From an uncultured Clostridia bacterium (GTDB taxonomy: Bacteria > Bacillota > Clostridia > Oscillospirales > Ruminococcaceae), in NCBI GenBank assembly GCA_947631575.1, contig CANRLW010000005.1, forward strand, positions 4,264-68,263: a stretch of 64,000 nt of DNA, read 5' to 3'. Every line of letters begins with the position of its first letter. Positions within the stretch are counted from its first letter, which is position 1. Below the pieces are notes generated by a model. That model had not been told where the DNA came from. It saw only the letters and a program-made list of their open reading frames with translations, and made no database searches. Below, one piece after another: positions 3,397 to 57,598 of the stretch. The translations under genes were made by a program, and so were the position numbers.

Positions 3397-4503
3397 TTAG
3401 ACAACGACCTTGTTCTTTCCGCTGTTTTTCCCCTCGTAAAGCCGTTTATCGGCAACCGATATAAGCATATCCATATATGTAGAAGACTGAGCGCCCGAAT
3501 TTATTTTAAGCTCTGTATAATTTGCAAGTCCAAATGTCATACTTACATTGATATTTTCTTCATCATAAACAAGACCGAGCTTGTTTATGTGCGATCTTAT
3601 TTTTTCAGTGCGGGCGAGGCAGTCGTTTCTTGTGCCTATAAGTATCATCAGAATTTCTTCGCCGCCCCAACGTACCGCAATGTCTTCCTCTCTGACTTCA
3701 TCAAGAAATACCTTTGCGACATTTTTCAGCACTATATCTCCGCAGTCGTGACCGTAGGTGTCGTTTATCTTCTTGAAATCGTCTATGTCGCCCATTATAA
3801 CGCAAAAGCTCTCTTCTTTCTTCATGAGCTCGTCAAAATAACCCCACAGGGCATGGCGGTTGTAAAGTCCGGTGAGCGCGTCATGTTCGGCTATGTATTC
3901 AAGCTCGTCGTTCTTTTTGCCAAGCTCTCTTATCAGCCCGGAGATCTCCGCACAGAACATCAGCGTAAATGCGCACAGGCAGACCATTGCGAAGAATATA
4001 TTGACGGTTTTCATTATGATCGTACCCGTAGCATTCAGGGTATGAATATTCATCAGCTCATAGAACGGACCGAAAATATTGTCGAAAACAACGCTTATTA
4101 TCAGCAGAATGACCGACGCGGACGTAAACAGAACGATCTGCTTTCTGAACTTTTCCCTGCTGCCGTAAAAGAACAGGCAATATGCCGCGATGGGAATTGT
4201 CAGCAGATAGTAAACATAAAAACCCACATCTACTCCGAGAAACAGCGTGCAGAGAAAAGCATGTACAACTATTTCGGAATAGATAGCGTTTATCCAGTTG
4301 TCTGCGTGCTCGGATACAGTGCCTTTGTCGCAGGCAGCCGCGCAGCATATGTAAAGGGTTACGCTCAGGACATTAAATCCCGCCAGCAAAAAATAACTAA
4401 GCGATGCAAATTCTATCAGAAAGGTCAGATGCGTCACGGCACAGCAAATACAGATGAGCCTGAATTTATTATCGACAGAAAATTTTGACGCATCAATTTT
4501 CAT
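3397..4503 (-). CDS. Membrane-bound diguanylate cyclase
   Basis: Hydrophobic N-terminal half; HDALTGLYNR, DIDDFKKINDTYGHDCGD, I-site REED and RWGGEEI active site. Confidence 0.9.
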   Translation of the reverse strand: MKIDASKFSVDNKFRLICICCAVTHLTFLIEFASLSYFLLAGFNVLSVTLYICCAAACDKGTVSEHADNWINAIYSEIVVHAFLCTLFLGVDVGFYVYYLLTIPIAAYCLFFYGSREKFRKQIVLFTSASVILLIISVVFDNIFGPFYELMNIHTLNATGTIIMKTVNIFFAMVCLCAFTLMFCAEISGLIRELGKKNDELEYIAEHDALTGLYNRHALWGYFDELMKKEESFCVIMGDIDDFKKINDTYGHDCGDIVLKNVAKVFLDEVREEDIAVRWGGEEILMILIGTRNDCLARTEKIRSHINKLGLVYDEENINVSMTFGLANYTELKINSGAQSSTYMDMLISVADKRLYEGKNSGKNKVVV

Positions 4504-50975: not shown

Positions 50976-51145
50976 TCTGCTGGCGGAAAGAGAGGGATTG
51001 AATTTAACCAATTTTTTAGTTTTGCTTTTGTCCACTTATCTTTTAAATTCCTTGATATTATGCGGAATTTTCTGTTTGCCCGTTTATGGAAAATTAAGGA
51101 AAAACCAACGAATTTCGACCAAAACGGGGTAAAAACGGGGCAAAT

Positions 51146-51709
51146 TTATAACCCAAATTTCTTGACCGTCCTATAAAAAGTGTTTGGTTTTAAGCCAACT
51201 TTCTTCATTGTTTCGGTAGCTGTTTGTTTGCCCGACCGCCAAAGTGCGCACTCTTTGCGGAGAAGTTTTTCATCATAAGAAACAGGCTTTCTTCCCGCAT
51301 ATTTGCCCTGCTGTTTAGCAATTTCAATTCCCTCACGCTGACGCTCTTTAATGACCTCACGCTCAAATTCGGCAAGCGCTCCGAAGATTGTGAGCATTAA
51401 CTTGCCCTGCGGCGTTTTCGTATCGAGGTTTTCTTTCTGCGAAATAACTGCAACGCCTTTAGCTTGAAGTTTGTCAATTATCGTCAGTAAATCTCTGACG
51501 CTCCTTGCAAGTCTTGCATACTCCGTAACAATCACGGTATCGCCCTCTCTTACATAGTCCAACATTGCCGACAGTTGAGGTCGCGCCATATTCTTCCCCG
51601 ACAGCTTATCGAGGAACACCTTGTCGCAGGGTATCTTCTTGAACGCCTCTAACTGCCGAGCCTCGTTCTGGTCGATACTGCTTACTCTCGCATAACCTAT
51701 GTTTGCCAT
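51146..51709 (-). CDS. Serine recombinase, resolvase/invertase family
   Basis: IGYARVSSIDQ catalytic Ser, DKLSGK, RPQL, RLARS, AEFEREVIKERQREG, C-terminal HTH. Confidence 0.95.
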   Translation of the reverse strand: MANIGYARVSSIDQNEARQLEAFKKIPCDKVFLDKLSGKNMARPQLSAMLDYVREGDTVIVTEYARLARSVRDLLTIIDKLQAKGVAVISQKENLDTKTPQGKLMLTIFGALAEFEREVIKERQREGIEIAKQQGKYAGRKPVSYDEKLLRKECALWRSGKQTATETMKKVGLKPNTFYRTVKKFGL

Positions 51710-51724
51710 ATTAACACCTCCAGA

Positions 51725-51880
51725 TATGTTATGTCATAATTATATCACTTTTTATGAAATATGTCAATATACACCATAACAAATGTTTTGACATAGATTT
51801 TGACATTTTCACTAAAGTATACTTCAATGACATATAAAAACAAAGTACTTCGCTTGTTGTGATTCCCGCCAACGACATAA
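51725..51880 (-). promoter_or_regulatory. Resolvase promoter overlapping a probable res site
   Basis: TTGACA-17-TATAAT on minus (51739-51767) embedded in repeated and inverted (T)GACATA motifs. Confidence 0.6.
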
Positions 51881-52134
51881 ACTGTTTTCTGGCTATTTTT
51901 TACAAATTTAACCAGAAAAGTAGAAAATTACAATAACAATATTGACAATAAGCGCAATATGTGGTAGAATGTATTAAAACAAGAGAGGAGAAGTATAAGT
52001 TTACTGTATCTTTTAAAAATTTAACATTTTGAATATGTTTCCCACTGGGCGTTTACACGCTTGGTGGGAATCTTGCATTTTAGGGAAAATGTACATTGAT
52101 TTGGTACAAAAAATTAAAGAAAGGGGTTTGTTTT

Positions 52135-52311
52135 ATGGAATTTTCGGCGGAACAAATTAACGACAAAATTAAGGAATTAAAAAGAGCGTATGCGCGTTCT
52201 TATGCGGCACAACATAAAGAGCAGCGCAAGGAACAGCAACGCCGTTGTTGGGAACGCAAGGCTCTCGCGGCTTTGGAACAGGAAATGAAAGAGCAAGAAA
52301 AAACCGATTAA
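52135..52311 (+). CDS. Small basic helical protein upstream of rep (58 aa)
   Basis: MEFSAEQ...RCWERKA...; RBS AAGGGG; upstream promoter TTGACA-17-TAGAAT at 51942. Confidence 0.65.
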   Translation: MEFSAEQINDKIKELKRAYARSYAAQHKEQRKEQQRRCWERKALAALEQEMKEQEKTD

Positions 52312-52406
52312 AAAGAAATGGCGGACTTTCGCCCGCCGAAAAACTGTGTGATGAAGGTCTGTAAACTTCACCGTTGTGATGAAGGTCTGTAAACTTCACC
52401 GTTTGC
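52308..52406 (-). ncRNA. Candidate counter-transcribed small RNA (about 95 nt) with two tandem 28-nt repeats
   Basis: Minus-strand TTGACA(52436-41)-17-TATAAT(52413-18); repeats TGTGATGAAGGTCTGTAAACTTCACCGT x2 (52347-52402); GGCGG-GCGAAAGT-CCGCC hairpin plus U tract on minus. Confidence 0.55.
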
Positions 52407-52561
52407 ATAATTATTATATCAAATATCTGGCAATATGTCAATATATTTTTTTGGAATTAACCGCAAAAATGGTTTACAAAGTACAGACCTTTATCTTCCT
52501 ACTTATATATGTTTATAGTACGTAAAAAAAGACAAATTAGTAGAAAGATGAGGTAATTTTA

Positions 52562-53866
52562 ATGCAAAAAATAGATAAATTCTTTTACGACGGACTGACA
52601 TTTACAAGGCAAAAAGAAAACTTTACTGAAATATGTAATTCAGAATTTGACTACGAAACTTTCGTCTTTCCTGCAACTTCAGACGAAAAAGTTATGGTAA
52701 ACGTAAAATTGAAATCCTGCTATCCTAAAGACCTCTTGGAAATTAATGAACTGAAAGAAGTTTACGCATATTATGACAAATTGGAGAGGGTTCATTTATT
52801 TGGCGAAAGTGAAATAGAAGAAAGCACAACTATATCTTCATCTTCATCAAGCGACAATAGCAATTCGCAAAAGCAAAAAGGTGAAAAAACAAAACGCGAA
52901 GAACCAAACGTTGCACTAATTGATGACACATACTACGTCAAGGGCTATGAAGCAGTTGAAGTTGATTTGTATAATGGTGAATTAGCATATTACGATTTGG
53001 AAAACGATGAATTAAGTAAATTCAACTTTCGAGGTTTGCAACAATTGCGAAGAGGTCATAGAGAAAAAACTAAGGACGTTTTGTTCAATTGCATCGAAGG
53101 CAAAACGCTGTTTCTCTCTTTCAATTCAGGCAATAAGTATATTCTTGACACCCTTCAAAAAATAGTTCGAGCATTTGAAAAATGGATTAAAAGAAAATAC
53201 GCAGACAACCTTAAATTTGCGGTTTTGGTATATGAACCCAACCCAGACGGCAGTTGGCACTTCCACGCTCTTATAACTTTCAATACCGTTCCCGCCGACT
53301 TTGATAAAGTTTTTGCGGACTGGGCAGACAAGTATAACAGCAAGCGCGGGATAAAAGACCAGACAAACGTGCAGCTCCTACAAACAAAGAACGATGTGCG
53401 CTTGACGTGGCTTTATTTGGACGCGACCTCTGAAAAGAAGAAAGATTATGCCGTTTTTTATCCCCCTCGGTTTAAGAATATCGTTATTTTCGGCGAGAGA
53501 ATTTCGGTACCGTCCATCAAAGTGACGGGCGAAACATTGCAGGCTTTTATAAGCGAAACCAACGCAGAGCAAATAGACGGACAGACAATGATAGTTTCAG
53601 ACACACAAACAGGAGAAGTTTTATACGAGTATGGCGAATGGTGGTTCACGGTTGATAAGAGCGTTTTGCGCGACTTAGTTACGAAAACTATAATGGATGC
53701 GATAATGTGTGACAATGAGGATATACTCACATTTTCACTATCCCGTATCGCCGAAAATGGGGGTGCAGGGGGAACGCCTGCCACAATACCTTTTGCCCGT
53801 CAGGGCGAAAGTAGTATTGTGCCTACTGTGCCACCCTATCAACTTTTAGCAAGCAAAGGAGCTTAA
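52562..53866 (+). CDS. Divergent HUH-superfamily rolling-circle replication initiator-like protein
   Basis: Motif 1-like TLFLSF, motif 2 YEPNPDGSWHFHAL, motif 3-like WLYLDA; position between a cop-like ORF and mob. Confidence 0.65.
   Translation: MQKIDKFFYDGLTFTRQKENFTEICNSEFDYETFVFPATSDEKVMVNVKLKSCYPKDLLEINELKEVYAYYDKLERVHLFGESEIEESTTISSSSSSDNSNSQKQKGEKTKREEPNVALIDDTYYVKGYEAVEVDLYNGELAYYDLENDELSKFNFRGLQQLRRGHREKTKDVLFNCIEGKTLFLSFNSGNKYILDTLQKIVRAFEKWIKRKYADNLKFAVLVYEPNPDGSWHFHALITFNTVPADFDKVFADWADKYNSKRGIKDQTNVQLLQTKNDVRLTWLYLDATSEKKKDYAVFYPPRFKNIVIFGERISVPSIKVTGETLQAFISETNAEQIDGQTMIVSDTQTGEVLYEYGEWWFTVDKSVLRDLVTKTIMDAIMCDNEDILTFSLSRIAENGGAGGTPATIPFARQGESSIVPTVPPYQLLASKGA
53759..53840. promoter_or_regulatory. 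Putative MOB-V oriT
   Basis: Hairpins TTTTGCCC-GTCA-GGGCGAAA and AGTAG-TATTGTGC-CTACT just upstream of the mob gene, the usual position of MOB-V oriT. Confidence 0.45.
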
Positions 53867-53870
53867 TTAA

Positions 53871-55124
53871 ATGGGAAATAATGGAAAATGTTTATCGGTA
53901 TCAATGAGCCAAGGGACGGTCGCACTCAATCACAATCGCAGAGAGCATACCCCGAAAAATGCAAACGCAAACCTCTCACATCACAATGTTTATATCAAAA
54001 CTTGTTCGGATTTAGAAAAAGCGTTTAATGAGATTTTTGGAAATGATGTTGCAAATTACAACGAAAAGCAAACCCGCAGTGACCGCCGAATTAAAAATTA
54101 CTATCAGAAAATTCATTCAAGTGAGGGAAAAGAAAATACGGCTAAGACCTGCTATGAATATGTATTTATGTTCGGCAACAGTGAAGATAACAACATAGCA
54201 GAGTTGGGCGAGAATGAAAGCGTATGGGACAGCAGGAATATGCTATTGGAACTTGAAAAGGCATTTGAAGAAAAATATCCAAACCTGAAAGTCGTTTCTG
54301 CGGTGGTGCATATGGACGAGCAAACGCCACATCTGCATATTGATTTTATTCCCGTTGCGACAGGTTACAAAAAAGGAATGGAACATCAATGTTCTTTAAC
54401 AAAGGCTCTTGAAAATTTAGGTTTTCAGAAAACCGAAAAACTTGCAGTTCAAAATTGGCAGGACGATGCAAAACAACTGATGACAGATATTCTTAACAAG
54501 TACGGATATGAACGCGAGTACAAGAATAACACCGAGAAACATTTGTCTGTCGACAAATTCAAACTCCTAAAGGAAAACGAAGAACTTCTCGAAGAAACTG
54601 AAATCAACAAAAAGGTTGTTCGCGAAAGTCGGGAACAGGTTGCCAAGATAAAAGCATTACAAGAGAAACTACAAACTGAAACCGAAGAATTTGTTTCATC
54701 ACTAACGCCTGCACCCACCAAAAAAGTTAAAACGCTTTTTGGAGAAAAGGAAGTTGAAAAATCTGCCGAGGAGTTACAGCGCGACAAAGAAATCTTAGCG
54801 GCACAGTCCGCACTAAAAGCCTGCGCCACTCGACAAGAGAAACAGGAGATTAAGGAAAAGCAACTGAAAGAATTGTCAAAGACCGTTGAAAAAGAAGCAC
54901 TGCAAAATGAAATAGAGCGAAAGACGCTTGTTGAAGAAAAACAGGCTCTTGAAAAAGAAAAGCAGTCATTTGCTATGGCGGTAGCATTAAAGGCAAGACA
55001 AATAGTTGACAAAGTATTGCGCTCACTTGGCATTAGACTGAATAGAGGACACGATTTGACCGAACAGATAAATTTAGCAATCCAGAAAGAAAGGAACGGT
55101 GAAGAACAGTGGAAACAACGATAA
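53871..55124 (+). CDS. mobV: MobV/Pre family relaxase (plasmid recombination enzyme)
   Basis: NHNRRE, CYEYVF, VVHMDEQTPHLHIDFIP, coiled-coil C-terminus. Confidence 0.92.
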   Translation: MGNNGKCLSVSMSQGTVALNHNRREHTPKNANANLSHHNVYIKTCSDLEKAFNEIFGNDVANYNEKQTRSDRRIKNYYQKIHSSEGKENTAKTCYEYVFMFGNSEDNNIAELGENESVWDSRNMLLELEKAFEEKYPNLKVVSAVVHMDEQTPHLHIDFIPVATGYKKGMEHQCSLTKALENLGFQKTEKLAVQNWQDDAKQLMTDILNKYGYEREYKNNTEKHLSVDKFKLLKENEELLEETEINKKVVRESREQVAKIKALQEKLQTETEEFVSSLTPAPTKKVKTLFGEKEVEKSAEELQRDKEILAAQSALKACATRQEKQEIKEKQLKELSKTVEKEALQNEIERKTLVEEKQALEKEKQSFAMAVALKARQIVDKVLRSLGIRLNRGHDLTEQINLAIQKERNGEEQWKQR

Positions 55125-55384
55125 CGATTGAGCCTATGTCAGTCTCTCACTTCTCGGAAAATGCGCAGAAACGTTATTCGGTCAGTTTTTCAACGACTAT
55201 ACCGCTTGAAATCCCTGTGCAGGACGCTTGGGAAATCGTTAGGCAGGTAATCAGTATATGCTTTCCTACCGAGAACGTAAGGCTCGAAACGCTGACAGAG
55301 GACTTAGCGCAAGACCGATATGCCTTTTCCGTCAGCGGAAACAGGATAACGCCAAAACGACAAGAGGTGACAATTTACATATAA
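55109..55384 (+). CDS. Hypothetical protein
   Basis: 91-aa ORF overlapping the mobV stop. Confidence 0.5.
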   Translation: METTITIEPMSVSHFSENAQKRYSVSFSTTIPLEIPVQDAWEIVRQVISICFPTENVRLETLTEDLAQDRYAFSVSGNRITPKRQEVTIYI

Positions 55385-55756
55385 CGTAAACTTGGACAAA
55401 CGAGGAATGGGGTTTGAAGATTGTTTCCGTACCGACAGCCACACCGAACAACAAAGCTCTTTTCTCCCTCTCGCCGCGCACGCCGAAAGGCGGTATGAGC
55501 CGCGACAGCGGCGATTTGGGTAAGCCGCAGGCTGGTAGATAAGATACATAAACTCGGTTTTCAATCAACAATAAGCGCTCAAAAATGCGTTCTATCGTGC
55601 TTATAAAGTAAGGCTTATAAGTTTATCGAATAAGCTCTGAAACGCAAATATAGGGCAATTTAGACGGCAAATATGATATATTAAAATACAAAACGAATAA
55701 AATACTTGACATTTCAAAGATAATAATCTAAAATAAAGCTGAAAGGATAAGTATAT

Positions 55757-56050
55757 ATGAGAAAAAATAAAGTTAATATACCAGCAGTTACAAGTTTAAA
55801 GACCGCTTTGGAGATTTATTACACAAAAATACAACTGAACAATGCAGACGTAGCCGAGCTGTTCGGCAACCACGCTCAAAGCACTATTTCCGCATTAAAA
55901 AAGGTTGCAAGAGATTATATGACAGAAAACAAAATTATGTTATACAATTCGAGAGATGTAAACACCAAAGCAGCGTATGCTGCGTGGGGTATCGACATAG
56001 CAGAAATCGAAAGGCGATACAAGAAAAGCAAAGAAATTGAACGAGTATAA
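55757..56050 (+). CDS. Small protein upstream of integrase, possible excisionase/regulator
   Basis: 97 aa, HTH-like NNADVAELFG...STISALK; promoter TTGACA-17-TAAAAT at 55706-55734; RBS AAGGA. Confidence 0.65.
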   Translation: MRKNKVNIPAVTSLKTALEIYYTKIQLNNADVAELFGNHAQSTISALKKVARDYMTENKIMLYNSRDVNTKAAYAAWGIDIAEIERRYKKSKEIERV

Positions 56051-56064
56051 AGGAGTAATTACAA

Positions 56065-57209
56065 ATGCCTATAACAATTGATAATCGCATTAAGAAGAAA
56101 AACGGCGTTTCGCGTTACCGTGTCCGCATAAACTATACTGATACTAACGGCAAACAAAATCAGATAGAACGGTTGGTATGGGAAAAGCAGATGCGGAGAT
56201 TGTCGAGCGTCAATTGGAAATGGAGTTCAAGAACAAAAAGCAGGTCAAATCAAGCAAAATTACCGTTGAAGAACTGTTTTTGATGTATGCCGAGTATCAC
56301 GCGACTGAAACCCGCAAAACCTCACACTATGCTGTAATGAAACGCTTAAAACTCTGGGTTTTGCCTTATTTTCAAGATAAACGTCTTGACAAACTCTCAC
56401 AACAGGACTTCGCAGAATGGAAAGTCAAGATAAACGGAACAAATTTATCTATTGCAAGCAAACAAAACGTTTATTGTGCTTTCGTTGCTATGCTCAATTA
56501 TGCTGTTAAGTTAGAAATGATACCTAAAAACGGACTTGCTGTTCTCGGAAACTTCAAAGACAGTTCTATTCCAGATAAAACAAACGAGGAGTTTCAATAC
56601 TACACCGCCGAACAATTTCAAAAATACATCTCGGTCGCAAAGTCTGAATGTAAAACAATAGAGGATTGGGACTTTTATGTTTTCTTCTGTATAGCCTTTT
56701 TTACGGGCGCAAGAAAGGGCGAAATACACGCTCTGAAATGGTCTGACATAGAGGGTAATATAATGCATATTCGGCGCAGTATTGCTCAAAAACTCAAAGG
56801 AGATGACGTTGAAACTGCGCCTAAAAACAAGAGCAGCATAAGGGATTTACAATTGCCTGTGCCGTTAATGAAAGTTTTAGACGAACACAAACAACGTCAG
56901 ATAGAGTATGCAGGCGAACATTTTAGTGAGGATTTACGAATATGCGGTTGCACCAGACCACTTCGTGATACGACCGTAGACAAGCGGAACAGGAAATATG
57001 CCGAGAAAGCGGGTTTACCTCGTATTCGCATACACGATTTCAGACATTCTCACGTTTCCCTGCTTGCAAATGAGGGAATAAATATACAAGAAGTCGCCCG
57101 CCGAATGGGGCATAGCACAGTTCAGGAAACTTGGAACAGATACAGCCATCTATATCCCCGCGAAGAAGAACGTGCTGTAAATGTGCTGAATAGCATATCG
57201 GTTGACTAA
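56065..57209 (+). pseudogene. Tyrosine integrase split by a -1 frameshift near 56180-56190
   Basis: ORF 56065 (RBS AAGGAG; RYRVRINY arm-binding-like N-terminus) overlaps ORF 56178-57209 with the full catalytic set TGARKGE, PKNKSS, HDFRHS, MGHS, RYSH. Confidence 0.85.
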
Positions 57210-57276
57210 ACTTTTTCGGGGTTTTTTCGGGGTAACAAAAAAGGAAACCGCATAACAATGCGATTTCCTGCCAATG

Positions 57277-57367
57277 TGGCGGAAAGAGAGGGATTCGAAC
57301 CCTCGAACGGGTTTAGCCGTTACACGATTTCCAATCGTGCGCCTTAGACCAGCTCAGCCATCTTTCC
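57277..57367 (-). tRNA. tRNA-Ser(GGA)
   Basis: GGAAAGATGGCTGAGCTGGTCTAAGGCGCACGATTGGAAATCGTG...GGTTCGAATCCCTCTCTTTCCGCCA; long variable arm; upstream TTGACA-17-TATAAT. Confidence 0.96.
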
Positions 57368-57598
57368 ACAACTATTACCGTAATATTATATCACAAATGC
57401 CGATTTTTGTCAATAGGATTTTTTCAATTTTTTTAGCCCGCAAAATTCCGCCAAAATGCGTTTACTGCTATAGACAAAACCCGTCTGCGTTTGTTTTTAC
57501 GCAAGCGGGCTGATTTTGGTTATGTAGTCGGAAACTTTCCCGGCAGGGACATTATATTGTCCGAACCGGGAAAATTTGCGACTGTCTTGATATTATAA

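Follow-up and report, generated by a model that had tools for sequence, protein, structure and literature searches.

The window analysed here is a 64-kb stretch of DNA from an uncultured Clostridia bacterium (contig CANRLW010000005.1), and all positions count from its first letter. In an integrated mobile element of this window, the interval between a small open reading frame (ORF) and the replication initiator gene rep has the layout of an antisense RNA gene, and we hold with considerable confidence that a regulatory countertranscript is encoded there. With less assurance, but still on the favourable side, we propose that this predicted countertranscript RNA (ctRNA) of ~97 nt serves to control copy number in a plasmid-like replication module and that it works through a full leader switch.

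In the proposed mechanism, the small ORF and rep would be transcribed together from the plus strand. In the ON state, a 5' segment of the rep leader (GAUGAAGGUCUGUA, present twice here) would pair with a 3' segment (UACAGACCUUUAUC) and keep an anti-Shine-Dalgarno (anti-SD) sequence at 52487-52503 off the Shine-Dalgarno (SD) region at 52539-52554, so that rep would be translated. In the OFF state, the ctRNA, which is fully complementary to the 5' segment, would bind it and displace the 3' segment; the freed anti-SD would then fold onto the SD and block translation of rep. More copies of the element would give more ctRNA, and thus a negative feedback. We infer the synthesis of the ctRNA, its binding and its effect on translation from the following features and from their counterparts in related elements.

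52347-52374: repeat copy 1, 28 nt, plus-strand sequence TGTGATGAAGGTCTGTAAACTTCACCGT; it carries the 5' segment GAUGAAGGUCUGUA in the mRNA (52350-52363) and UACAGACCUUCAUC in the ctRNA
52375-52402: repeat copy 2, the identical 28 nt; its 5' segment (52378-52391) is predicted to form a 14-bp helix with 52482-52495
52441..52413, minus strand: ctRNA promoter, TTGACA-17-TATAAT with a TG extension, score 12/12
52337..52320, minus strand: stem of the ctRNA intrinsic terminator, followed by a U tract at 52319..52310
52406..52310, minus strand: predicted ctRNA, ~97 nt, bounded by the promoter and the terminator
52482..52503, plus strand: 3' segment of the rep leader, in which 52482-52495 pairs with the 5' segment and 52487-52503 is the anti-SD
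52539..52554, plus strand: SD region of rep (AGUAGAAAGAUGAGGU), partner of the anti-SD

Layout of the predicted countertranscript

A first-pass annotation of this DNA had pointed to two exact repeat copies, a perfect minus-strand promoter, a terminator specific to the minus strand and a third, inverted partial copy of the repeat, and all four were recovered at the positions listed above. The 23-nt core of the repeat is found in two places only in the window (0 expected in shuffles), and the inverted partial copy (52482-52495) is complementary to each repeat copy at 13/14 positions. The terminator hairpin GGCGGGCGAAAGUCCGCC is GC-rich, with 7 bp and a GAAA loop, and is followed by AUUUCUUUUU. 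A terminator scan flagged 52337..52320 on the minus strand only, the hairpin of the plus strand being followed by GAAAAACUG. Rfam searches of positions 51000-57500 with cmscan (E <= 10) returned no match overlapping 52300-52500.

The minus-strand RNA of 97-99 nt has a predicted folding energy of -30.5 kcal/mol (z = -4.5), equalled by 0 of 200 shuffles. It had been described as two hairpins, and each repeat unit can indeed form a 7-bp GGUGAAG/CUUCAUC hairpin in the minus-strand RNA, but the identity of the copies lets one pair with the other, and a nested long hairpin is favoured over the two-hairpin form (-30.5 vs -27.6 kcal/mol, with pair probabilities of 0.97 and 0.013 respectively). Because the nested fold is more stable, two separate hairpins would need co-transcriptional trapping. 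The G.U pair of the repeat hairpin in the minus strand corresponds to an A.C mismatch in the plus strand.

Related loci were collected through homologues of Rep (L001, L002-4, L005, L010-11, L012, L013-15 and L016) and of the small ORF (L019, L020 and L021-22); besides the small-ORF homologues, they span 91% Rep identity down to profile E-values of ~1e-57. When relatives were sought in other metagenome-assembled genomes (MAGs), a search of genome contigs gave only one other MAG, and a search of metagenome contigs by protein pattern gave none. Nine lineages show the same order, namely the stop codon of the small ORF, a terminator on the minus strand only, a lineage-specific interior, a minus-strand promoter and the rep SD, and this conserved layout supports the earlier proposal of a minus-strand countertranscript between the two genes. 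The terminator directly follows the small-ORF stop in 9/9 related loci, and a near-consensus promoter, TTGAC(A/T)-17-TAnnnT, lies 50-115 nt beyond it in 8/9 lineages, L012 having a poor -10; the rep SD stands a further 60-120 nt away. The interiors (40-90 nt) are unrelated in sequence, the predicted ctRNAs range from 52 to 114 nt, and every relative's predicted ctRNA consists of one 5' stem-loop and a terminator. On these comparative grounds, a promoter and a terminator kept in orientation around an interior that is free to vary are the hallmark of a small antisense RNA that is functional.

One of the loci found through the small ORF, L020, is interrupted (~355-470) right after GATTAACCGTAAAA, 3' of the ctRNA promoter, and a gene for an rve-family transposase replaces rep; as read from the sequence, the break indicates an insertion sequence in the leader. 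A single rabbit-gut Clostridia MAG carries both L001 (CANQVE010000039.1) and L002 (CANQVE010000034.1), the Reps of which are 48% identical and the ctRNA/target words of which are wholly different (UACAGACC vs GCGUAUC). This divergence fits co-residence allowed by different antisense specificities, and two elements with differing ctRNAs and targets in one MAG are the pattern expected if ctRNA specificity governs co-residence.

Predicted pairing and folding in the rep leader

The target of the ctRNA extends as far as 52406, ~155 nt short of the rep start at 52562, so that the ribosome-binding site (RBS) is not overlapped. In the window, the 5' segment GAUGAAGGUCUGUA and the 3' segment UACAGACCUUUAUC (52482-52495) can form 14 bp, with one G.U (-19.8 kcal/mol), and the anti-SD ACCUUUAUCUUCCUACU (52487-52503) can pair with the SD region AGUAGAAAGAUGAGGU (52539-52554) at -12.1 kcal/mol; having 9 nt in common, the two helices are mutually exclusive. 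A near copy of the 3' segment, UACAGACCUUCAUC, is part of the ctRNA itself. In six loci (the window, L021, L019, L002, L005 and L010), the helix of the 5' and 3' segments has 11-23 pairs and that of the anti-SD and SD has 12-15, the two overlap by 7-11 nt, and 4-8 nt separate the end of the SD helix from the start codon. We relied on a table of ungapped helices and on ensemble opening energies instead of long duplexfold windows, which were inflated and loop-rich. To assess the significance of pairing, we shuffled the 3' region with its dinucleotides kept and took the fraction of shuffles that paired at least as well as the native sequence:

Window: 5' with 3' segment, 0.003; anti-SD with SD, 0.043
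L002: 5' with 3' segment, 0.000; anti-SD with SD, 0.010
L005: 5' with 3' segment, 0.113; anti-SD with SD, 0.000
L010: 5' with 3' segment, 0.007; anti-SD with SD, 0.030

Both helices vary in a compensatory manner. Where the window has GGUCUGUA/UACAGACC, L021 and L019 have GGUAUGUA/UACAUACC, so that between the window and its closest relatives a C-to-A change in the 5' segment is matched by a complementary G-to-U change in the 3' segment; distant lineages use other complementary words (GGUACGC/GCGUAUC in L002 and L005, AGAAGCGU/ACGCUUCU in L010). The flanks of the anti-SD track the SD of their own locus, with UGUUGCUU and AAGUAGCA in L002, CUCUUU and AAAGAG in L005, and ACGCU and AGCGU in L010. 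When 5' and 3' segments were paired across loci, mean duplex energies were -25.0 kcal/mol for cognate and -17.5 kcal/mol for non-cognate combinations, and the cognate pair ranked first or second in its row for 7/9 loci. The non-Watson-Crick positions in the leader helices are G.U in the plus-strand sense and never A.C, a pattern that, at the level of sequence, fits a long-range helix in the mRNA and a hairpin in the ctRNA rather than a DNA palindrome.

We then compared the predicted folding of the leader with its ctRNA target free or blocked. With the target blocked, the minimum free energy (MFE) structure of the window leader pairs 52487-52503 with 52539-52554. Blocking raised the opening energy of the SD core in 9/9 loci, by 0.5-7.4 kcal/mol, as in the following examples:

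Window: free 2.5, blocked 9.6 kcal/mol
L002: free 1.4, blocked 8.8 kcal/mol
L021: free 5.8, blocked 12.1 kcal/mol
L012: free 0.4, blocked 5.1 kcal/mol

Dinucleotide shuffling of the target region had the same effect as blocking it, and in 7/9 loci the SD is more open with the native target than with 38-40 of 40 shuffles. These predicted energetics support a role of the ctRNA target as an anti-anti-SD. Overall, compensatory changes, cognate-specific pairing and folding controls support the switch in six to seven of the nine loci.

Several points weigh against a leader switch. The most distant loci, L012, L013 and L016, have the layout, and neither the pairing of the 5' and 3' segments nor that of the anti-SD and SD is significant in them. 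The cross-locus matrix of anti-SD and SD pairings has weak specificity, the discrimination being poor because all SDs are purine-rich. In the free-state MFE structure of the leader, part of the SD core is itself paired with ACUUCA in repeat copy 1, and the whole mechanism rests on thermodynamic prediction over a leader of ~250-270 nt, in which long-range pairs are uncertain. If rep had a promoter at the conserved plus-strand TTGACA that precedes the 3' segment, the rep mRNA would be left without the ctRNA target. Lastly, the pyrimidine-rich 3' segment TTATCTTCCTAC also resembles the nick regions of pC194-type origins, and it could also have a role at the DNA level.

The plus-strand TTGACA stands immediately 5' of the 3' segment in L002 (~3909-3914), L005 (~421-426) and L019 (~847-852), with the variants TTTACA in the window (52472-52477) and TTGACG in L021. 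We rejected it as a rep promoter, as a -10 spaced by 16-18 nt is lacking in every locus.

Alternative explanations and the repeat duplication

A real ctRNA might act on transcription rather than on translation, either because the anti-SD:SD stem-loop, followed by UAAUUUUAAU, terminates the operon in the manner of pT181 or pIP501, or through interference between convergent promoters. The ctRNA and operon promoters do converge, the attenuator of pT181 is the RBS-containing stem-loop IV (PMC5703833), and the helix induced here is followed by the U-rich spacer UAAUUUUAAUG, a similar UAAUUUU(U)AUG following the helix in L002, L019 and L021. In L005 and L010, however, the sequence past the helix is not U-rich, the scan found no plus-strand terminator in 52400-52562, and the induced stem, which is AU-rich with mismatches and a ~35-nt loop, is unlike an intrinsic terminator. 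We therefore regard action on transcription as unlikely and translational masking as the more likely outcome, because no terminator-like structure precedes rep. Another possibility keeps the effect on translation but has the ctRNA mask the rep SD directly in trans, through CCUUCAUC (CCUUCC in relatives) pairing with GAUGAGG (GGAAGG), the leader repeats serving as an SD-like decoy or sponge. The repeat unit of the mRNA (GAUGAAGGU) does resemble the rep SD region (GAUGAGGU), the predicted pairing of ctRNA and SD reaches -10 to -14 kcal/mol in most loci, and CCUUCC or CGCUUCU is single-stranded in the predicted ctRNAs of L002, L005 and L010. A fully complementary leader target of more than 60 bp should nevertheless outcompete an interrupted duplex of ~8 bp, and the cis anti-SD helix is stronger in most loci (-12 to -19 kcal/mol, 12-15 pairs), with near parity in L005 (-14.2 in trans vs -15 to -19 in cis), which makes masking in trans highly improbable.

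The repeats might instead be DNA sites, such as iterons or operators for Rep, for the small helical protein or for the resolvase of the element, with the minus-strand RNA incidental. Two direct copies and one inverted copy do surround a promoter, the motif changes along with the Rep lineage as co-evolving sites would, the double-strand origin of the Rep family was not located, and the ctRNA and resolvase promoters have a 36-nt stretch in common at 78% identity. We find this very unlikely all the same: L019, L021 and L022 have one unit, so that the iteron alternative raised in the first-pass annotation is disfavoured by the closest relatives, and L010, L013 and L016 have no direct repeats there. 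Complementarity extends over 14-23 nt, with exceptions only of the G.U type in the plus sense; the 3' segment is complementary to the SD flanks of each locus, which no DNA-binding model predicts; and a minus-only terminator kept in nine loci needs a transcript. The same annotation had considered an RNA titrating a protein, as in type III toxin-antitoxin systems, given identical tandem RNA units 3' of a strong promoter. The units number only two, and one in relatives, the repeat unit is antisense to the operon leader, and the terminator directly follows the repeats, with no minus-strand toxin ORF and indeed no minus-strand ORF with a start signal beyond it; the probability of such a system is close to nil.

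With regard to the duplication itself, repeat number in homologous elements was checked as the first-pass annotation had suggested: L019, L021 and L022, the small ORFs of which are 69-94% identical to that of the window, have one 28-nt unit, whereas the window and L001 have two, the difference appearing in the alignment as a clean insertion of 28 nt. Scans with the repeat unit as a DNA pattern recovered only the contig of L001, plus L023, which is probably a chance match and stands in the setting of an unrelated integrase. Between the window and L001, identity is 99-100% over 51144-52560, only 72-93% across the first half of rep, and mosaic elsewhere. Given this mosaic identity, their common duplication stems from one recent event or an exchanged module and not from independent retention. 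In silico leaders with 1, 2 or 3 units had free SD opening energies of 1.6, 2.5 and 2.5 kcal/mol and a bound energy of 9.6 kcal/mol each; the switch being the same, any effect of the duplication would fall on the fold, half-life or pairing rate of the ctRNA. The duplication had been singled out as the unusual part of the locus, and the exact copies are real, but the comparison of sequences indicates that they are probably recent, lineage-specific and dispensable, the predicted switch having no need of them.

The wider alignment of the window with L001 (50994-55643) shows identity of 99-100% also over 53394-53693, and blocks of 70-82% in rep (52944-53243) and mob (54144-55043). At the sequence level, this mosaic indicates modular recombination between elements.

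The duplication may alter the folding or binding kinetics of the ctRNA, or be neutral. We think it quite unlikely that it is functional and not neutral, and give the same low standing to a separate idea, that the 58-aa product of the small ORF, predicted to be a single helix, is a new RNA-level cofactor. As modelled, the duplicated ctRNA could be bivalent, with a pair of identical loops of YUNR type, or could form one long hairpin with bulges, which could present a new apical loop, ACAAC, at the repeat junction. If either form were true, pairing kinetics or incompatibility specificity would be changed, and the element would be a snapshot of a new incompatibility type arising, with duplication before divergence. 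The 58-aa protein, for its part, could be Rom-like in role, although not in fold, rather than a transcriptional Cop.

Element context and comparison with known systems

The element is 6.3 kb in size and is flanked by a 19-bp direct repeat (50981-50999 and 57277-57295), the second copy of which is the 3' end of a tRNA-Ser gene; it is of the integrative mobilizable kind, is inserted at tRNA-Ser and carries a replication module like that of a plasmid. The genes and the promoter that bear on the replication module are the following:

51146-51709, minus strand: serine resolvase
51942..51970, plus strand: likely promoter of the operon of small ORF and rep, TTGACA-17-TAGAAT with TG, score 11/12
52135..52311, plus strand: small ORF, 58 aa, conserved, in a cop-like position before rep
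52562..53866, plus strand: rep, the 434-aa product of which is an HUH-type initiator that belongs to a rare family, contains the motif WHFH (HUH) and matches PF23343 weakly

The other genes of the element encode a MobV relaxase, two small ORFs and a tyrosine integrase; the integrase region consists of two overlapping ORFs, 56065-56283 (72 aa) and 56178-57209 (343 aa). In Pfam, Rep matched REP_ORF2-G2P (PF23343) at 3.8e-5 and 24.3 bits, under the gathering score, and neither Rep_2 nor RepA_N. The family is rare: a HMMER search of 1.84 billion representatives gave 44 proteins at E <= 1e-3, 8 of them at E <= 1e-30, and 0 of 400 genomes of the same order had a Rep homologue. A megablast search of positions 51700-55200 against a plasmid collection gave no match. 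The 58-aa protein aligns with 8 homologues (40-88% identity) and is predicted by AlphaFold to be one continuous helix (residues 5-57; predicted local distance difference test score, pLDDT, 92). It matched PHROG 14214 (function unknown) at 4.5e-5, no ribbon-helix-helix (RHH) or helix-turn-helix family in Pfam, no RHH family in NCBIfam, and by sequence no solved structure.

We infer that the small ORF and rep share one plus-strand transcript, because no plus-strand terminator follows the ORF and no plus-strand promoter precedes rep, the scan having flagged none between 52070 and 52562. An equivalent of the operon promoter, TTGACA-17-TATAAT, lies 5' of the leader hairpin in L002. The 5' untranslated region of the operon contains a 14-bp hairpin (52039-52070) that was flagged as terminator-like on the plus strand and is kept, with compensatory changes, in L002 (~3455-3490) and L019 (~410-445); a U-rich tail follows it in the window alone. 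The hairpin could act as an attenuator or stabilise the mRNA, or it could belong to an origin. Also 5' of the small ORF, a near-invariant word, TTTCTGTTACACT(A/T)T(A/T)A, is found in four distantly related elements (L010 ~925-945, L012 8-28, L013 ~2050-2070 and L016 ~362-382), and its counterpart in the window, near 51996-52015, is only a loose one. By its sequence, the word is a candidate nick site, either of the double-strand origin or of oriT.

The 36-nt stretch mentioned above joins the ctRNA promoter (52410-52445) and the promoter region of the resolvase (51736-51771), the promoter of which is TTGACA-17-TATAAT at 51767..51739. Upstream of the resolvase, positions 51720-51815 contain several TGTCA(A/T)-type words in both orientations that resemble res half-sites. 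The similarity of the two promoters is not obvious in L021. Judged from this likeness, the two could have a common regulator, or the resolvase could cross-talk with ctRNA synthesis. In pMV158, for comparison, MobM acts on the promoter of RNAII.

Antisense-RNA copy control is textbook knowledge for plasmids. To our knowledge, there are few accounts of it in replication modules carried by integrative mobilizable elements, and none for the present HUH Rep family. The comparative set offers a testable three-element riboregulator (SD mimic, anti-SD and SD) with natural compensatory variants in metagenomes, of relevance to specialists of plasmids and mobile elements and to designers of orthogonal riboregulators; general concepts are unchanged.

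The locus had been likened to pMV158-type replicons, and it does follow pMV158/pLS1 copG-rnaII-repB in the order of small ORF, antisense RNA and rep, in the presence of MobV, in the lack of a sense terminator between the genes and in the probable co-transcription of the small ORF and rep, all in a mobilizable replicon of rolling-circle type. The likeness ends there. RNAII of pMV158, 48 nt long, has its start within repB and pairs with the region directly 5' of the RBS (PMC5703833; PMC4485353), and CopG is an RHH repressor (PMC5703833). Here, the ctRNA promoter precedes the rep ATG by 121 nt and is directed away from rep, the target of the RNA is not adjacent to the RBS, Rep does not belong to Rep_2, and the small protein is predicted to be a single helix rather than an RHH CopG.

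RNAI of pT181 sequesters a pre-emptor, upon which an RBS-containing terminator forms (PMC5703833). The leader described here resembles those of pT181 and pIP501 in having three elements, of which the pre-emptor pairs with the 5' arm of the RBS stem-loop (PMC5703833); in contrast to pT181 RNAI and pIP501 RNAIII, which cause termination at a compact terminator, there is no terminator-like structure before rep in 52400-52562. RNAI of pSK41, which binds ~100 nt upstream, is proposed to bring about a stem-loop that sequesters the RBS, attenuation playing no part (Kwong et al., as reviewed in PMC5703833). As in pSK41, the ctRNA target lies in the leader far from the initiation region (here at least 155 nt from the ATG), and the RNA consists of 5' stem-loop(s) and a terminator. 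For the present leader, a structure that would sequester the RBS on ctRNA binding is predicted in silico. Whereas pSK41 belongs to the staphylococcal RepA_N plasmids, the present system has an HUH-type Rep in a chromosomally integrated mobilizable element, with a small ORF before the ctRNA. Its target extends 155-215 nt upstream of the start codon instead of ~100 nt, an exact tandem duplicate module takes the place of the two different stem-loops of pSK41, and there is no relationship in sequence or in Rfam. By analogy, the proposed mechanism would be most like that of pSK41, with pT181-style logic, and the system would be a member of neither family, since the initiator differs and the sequences are not related.

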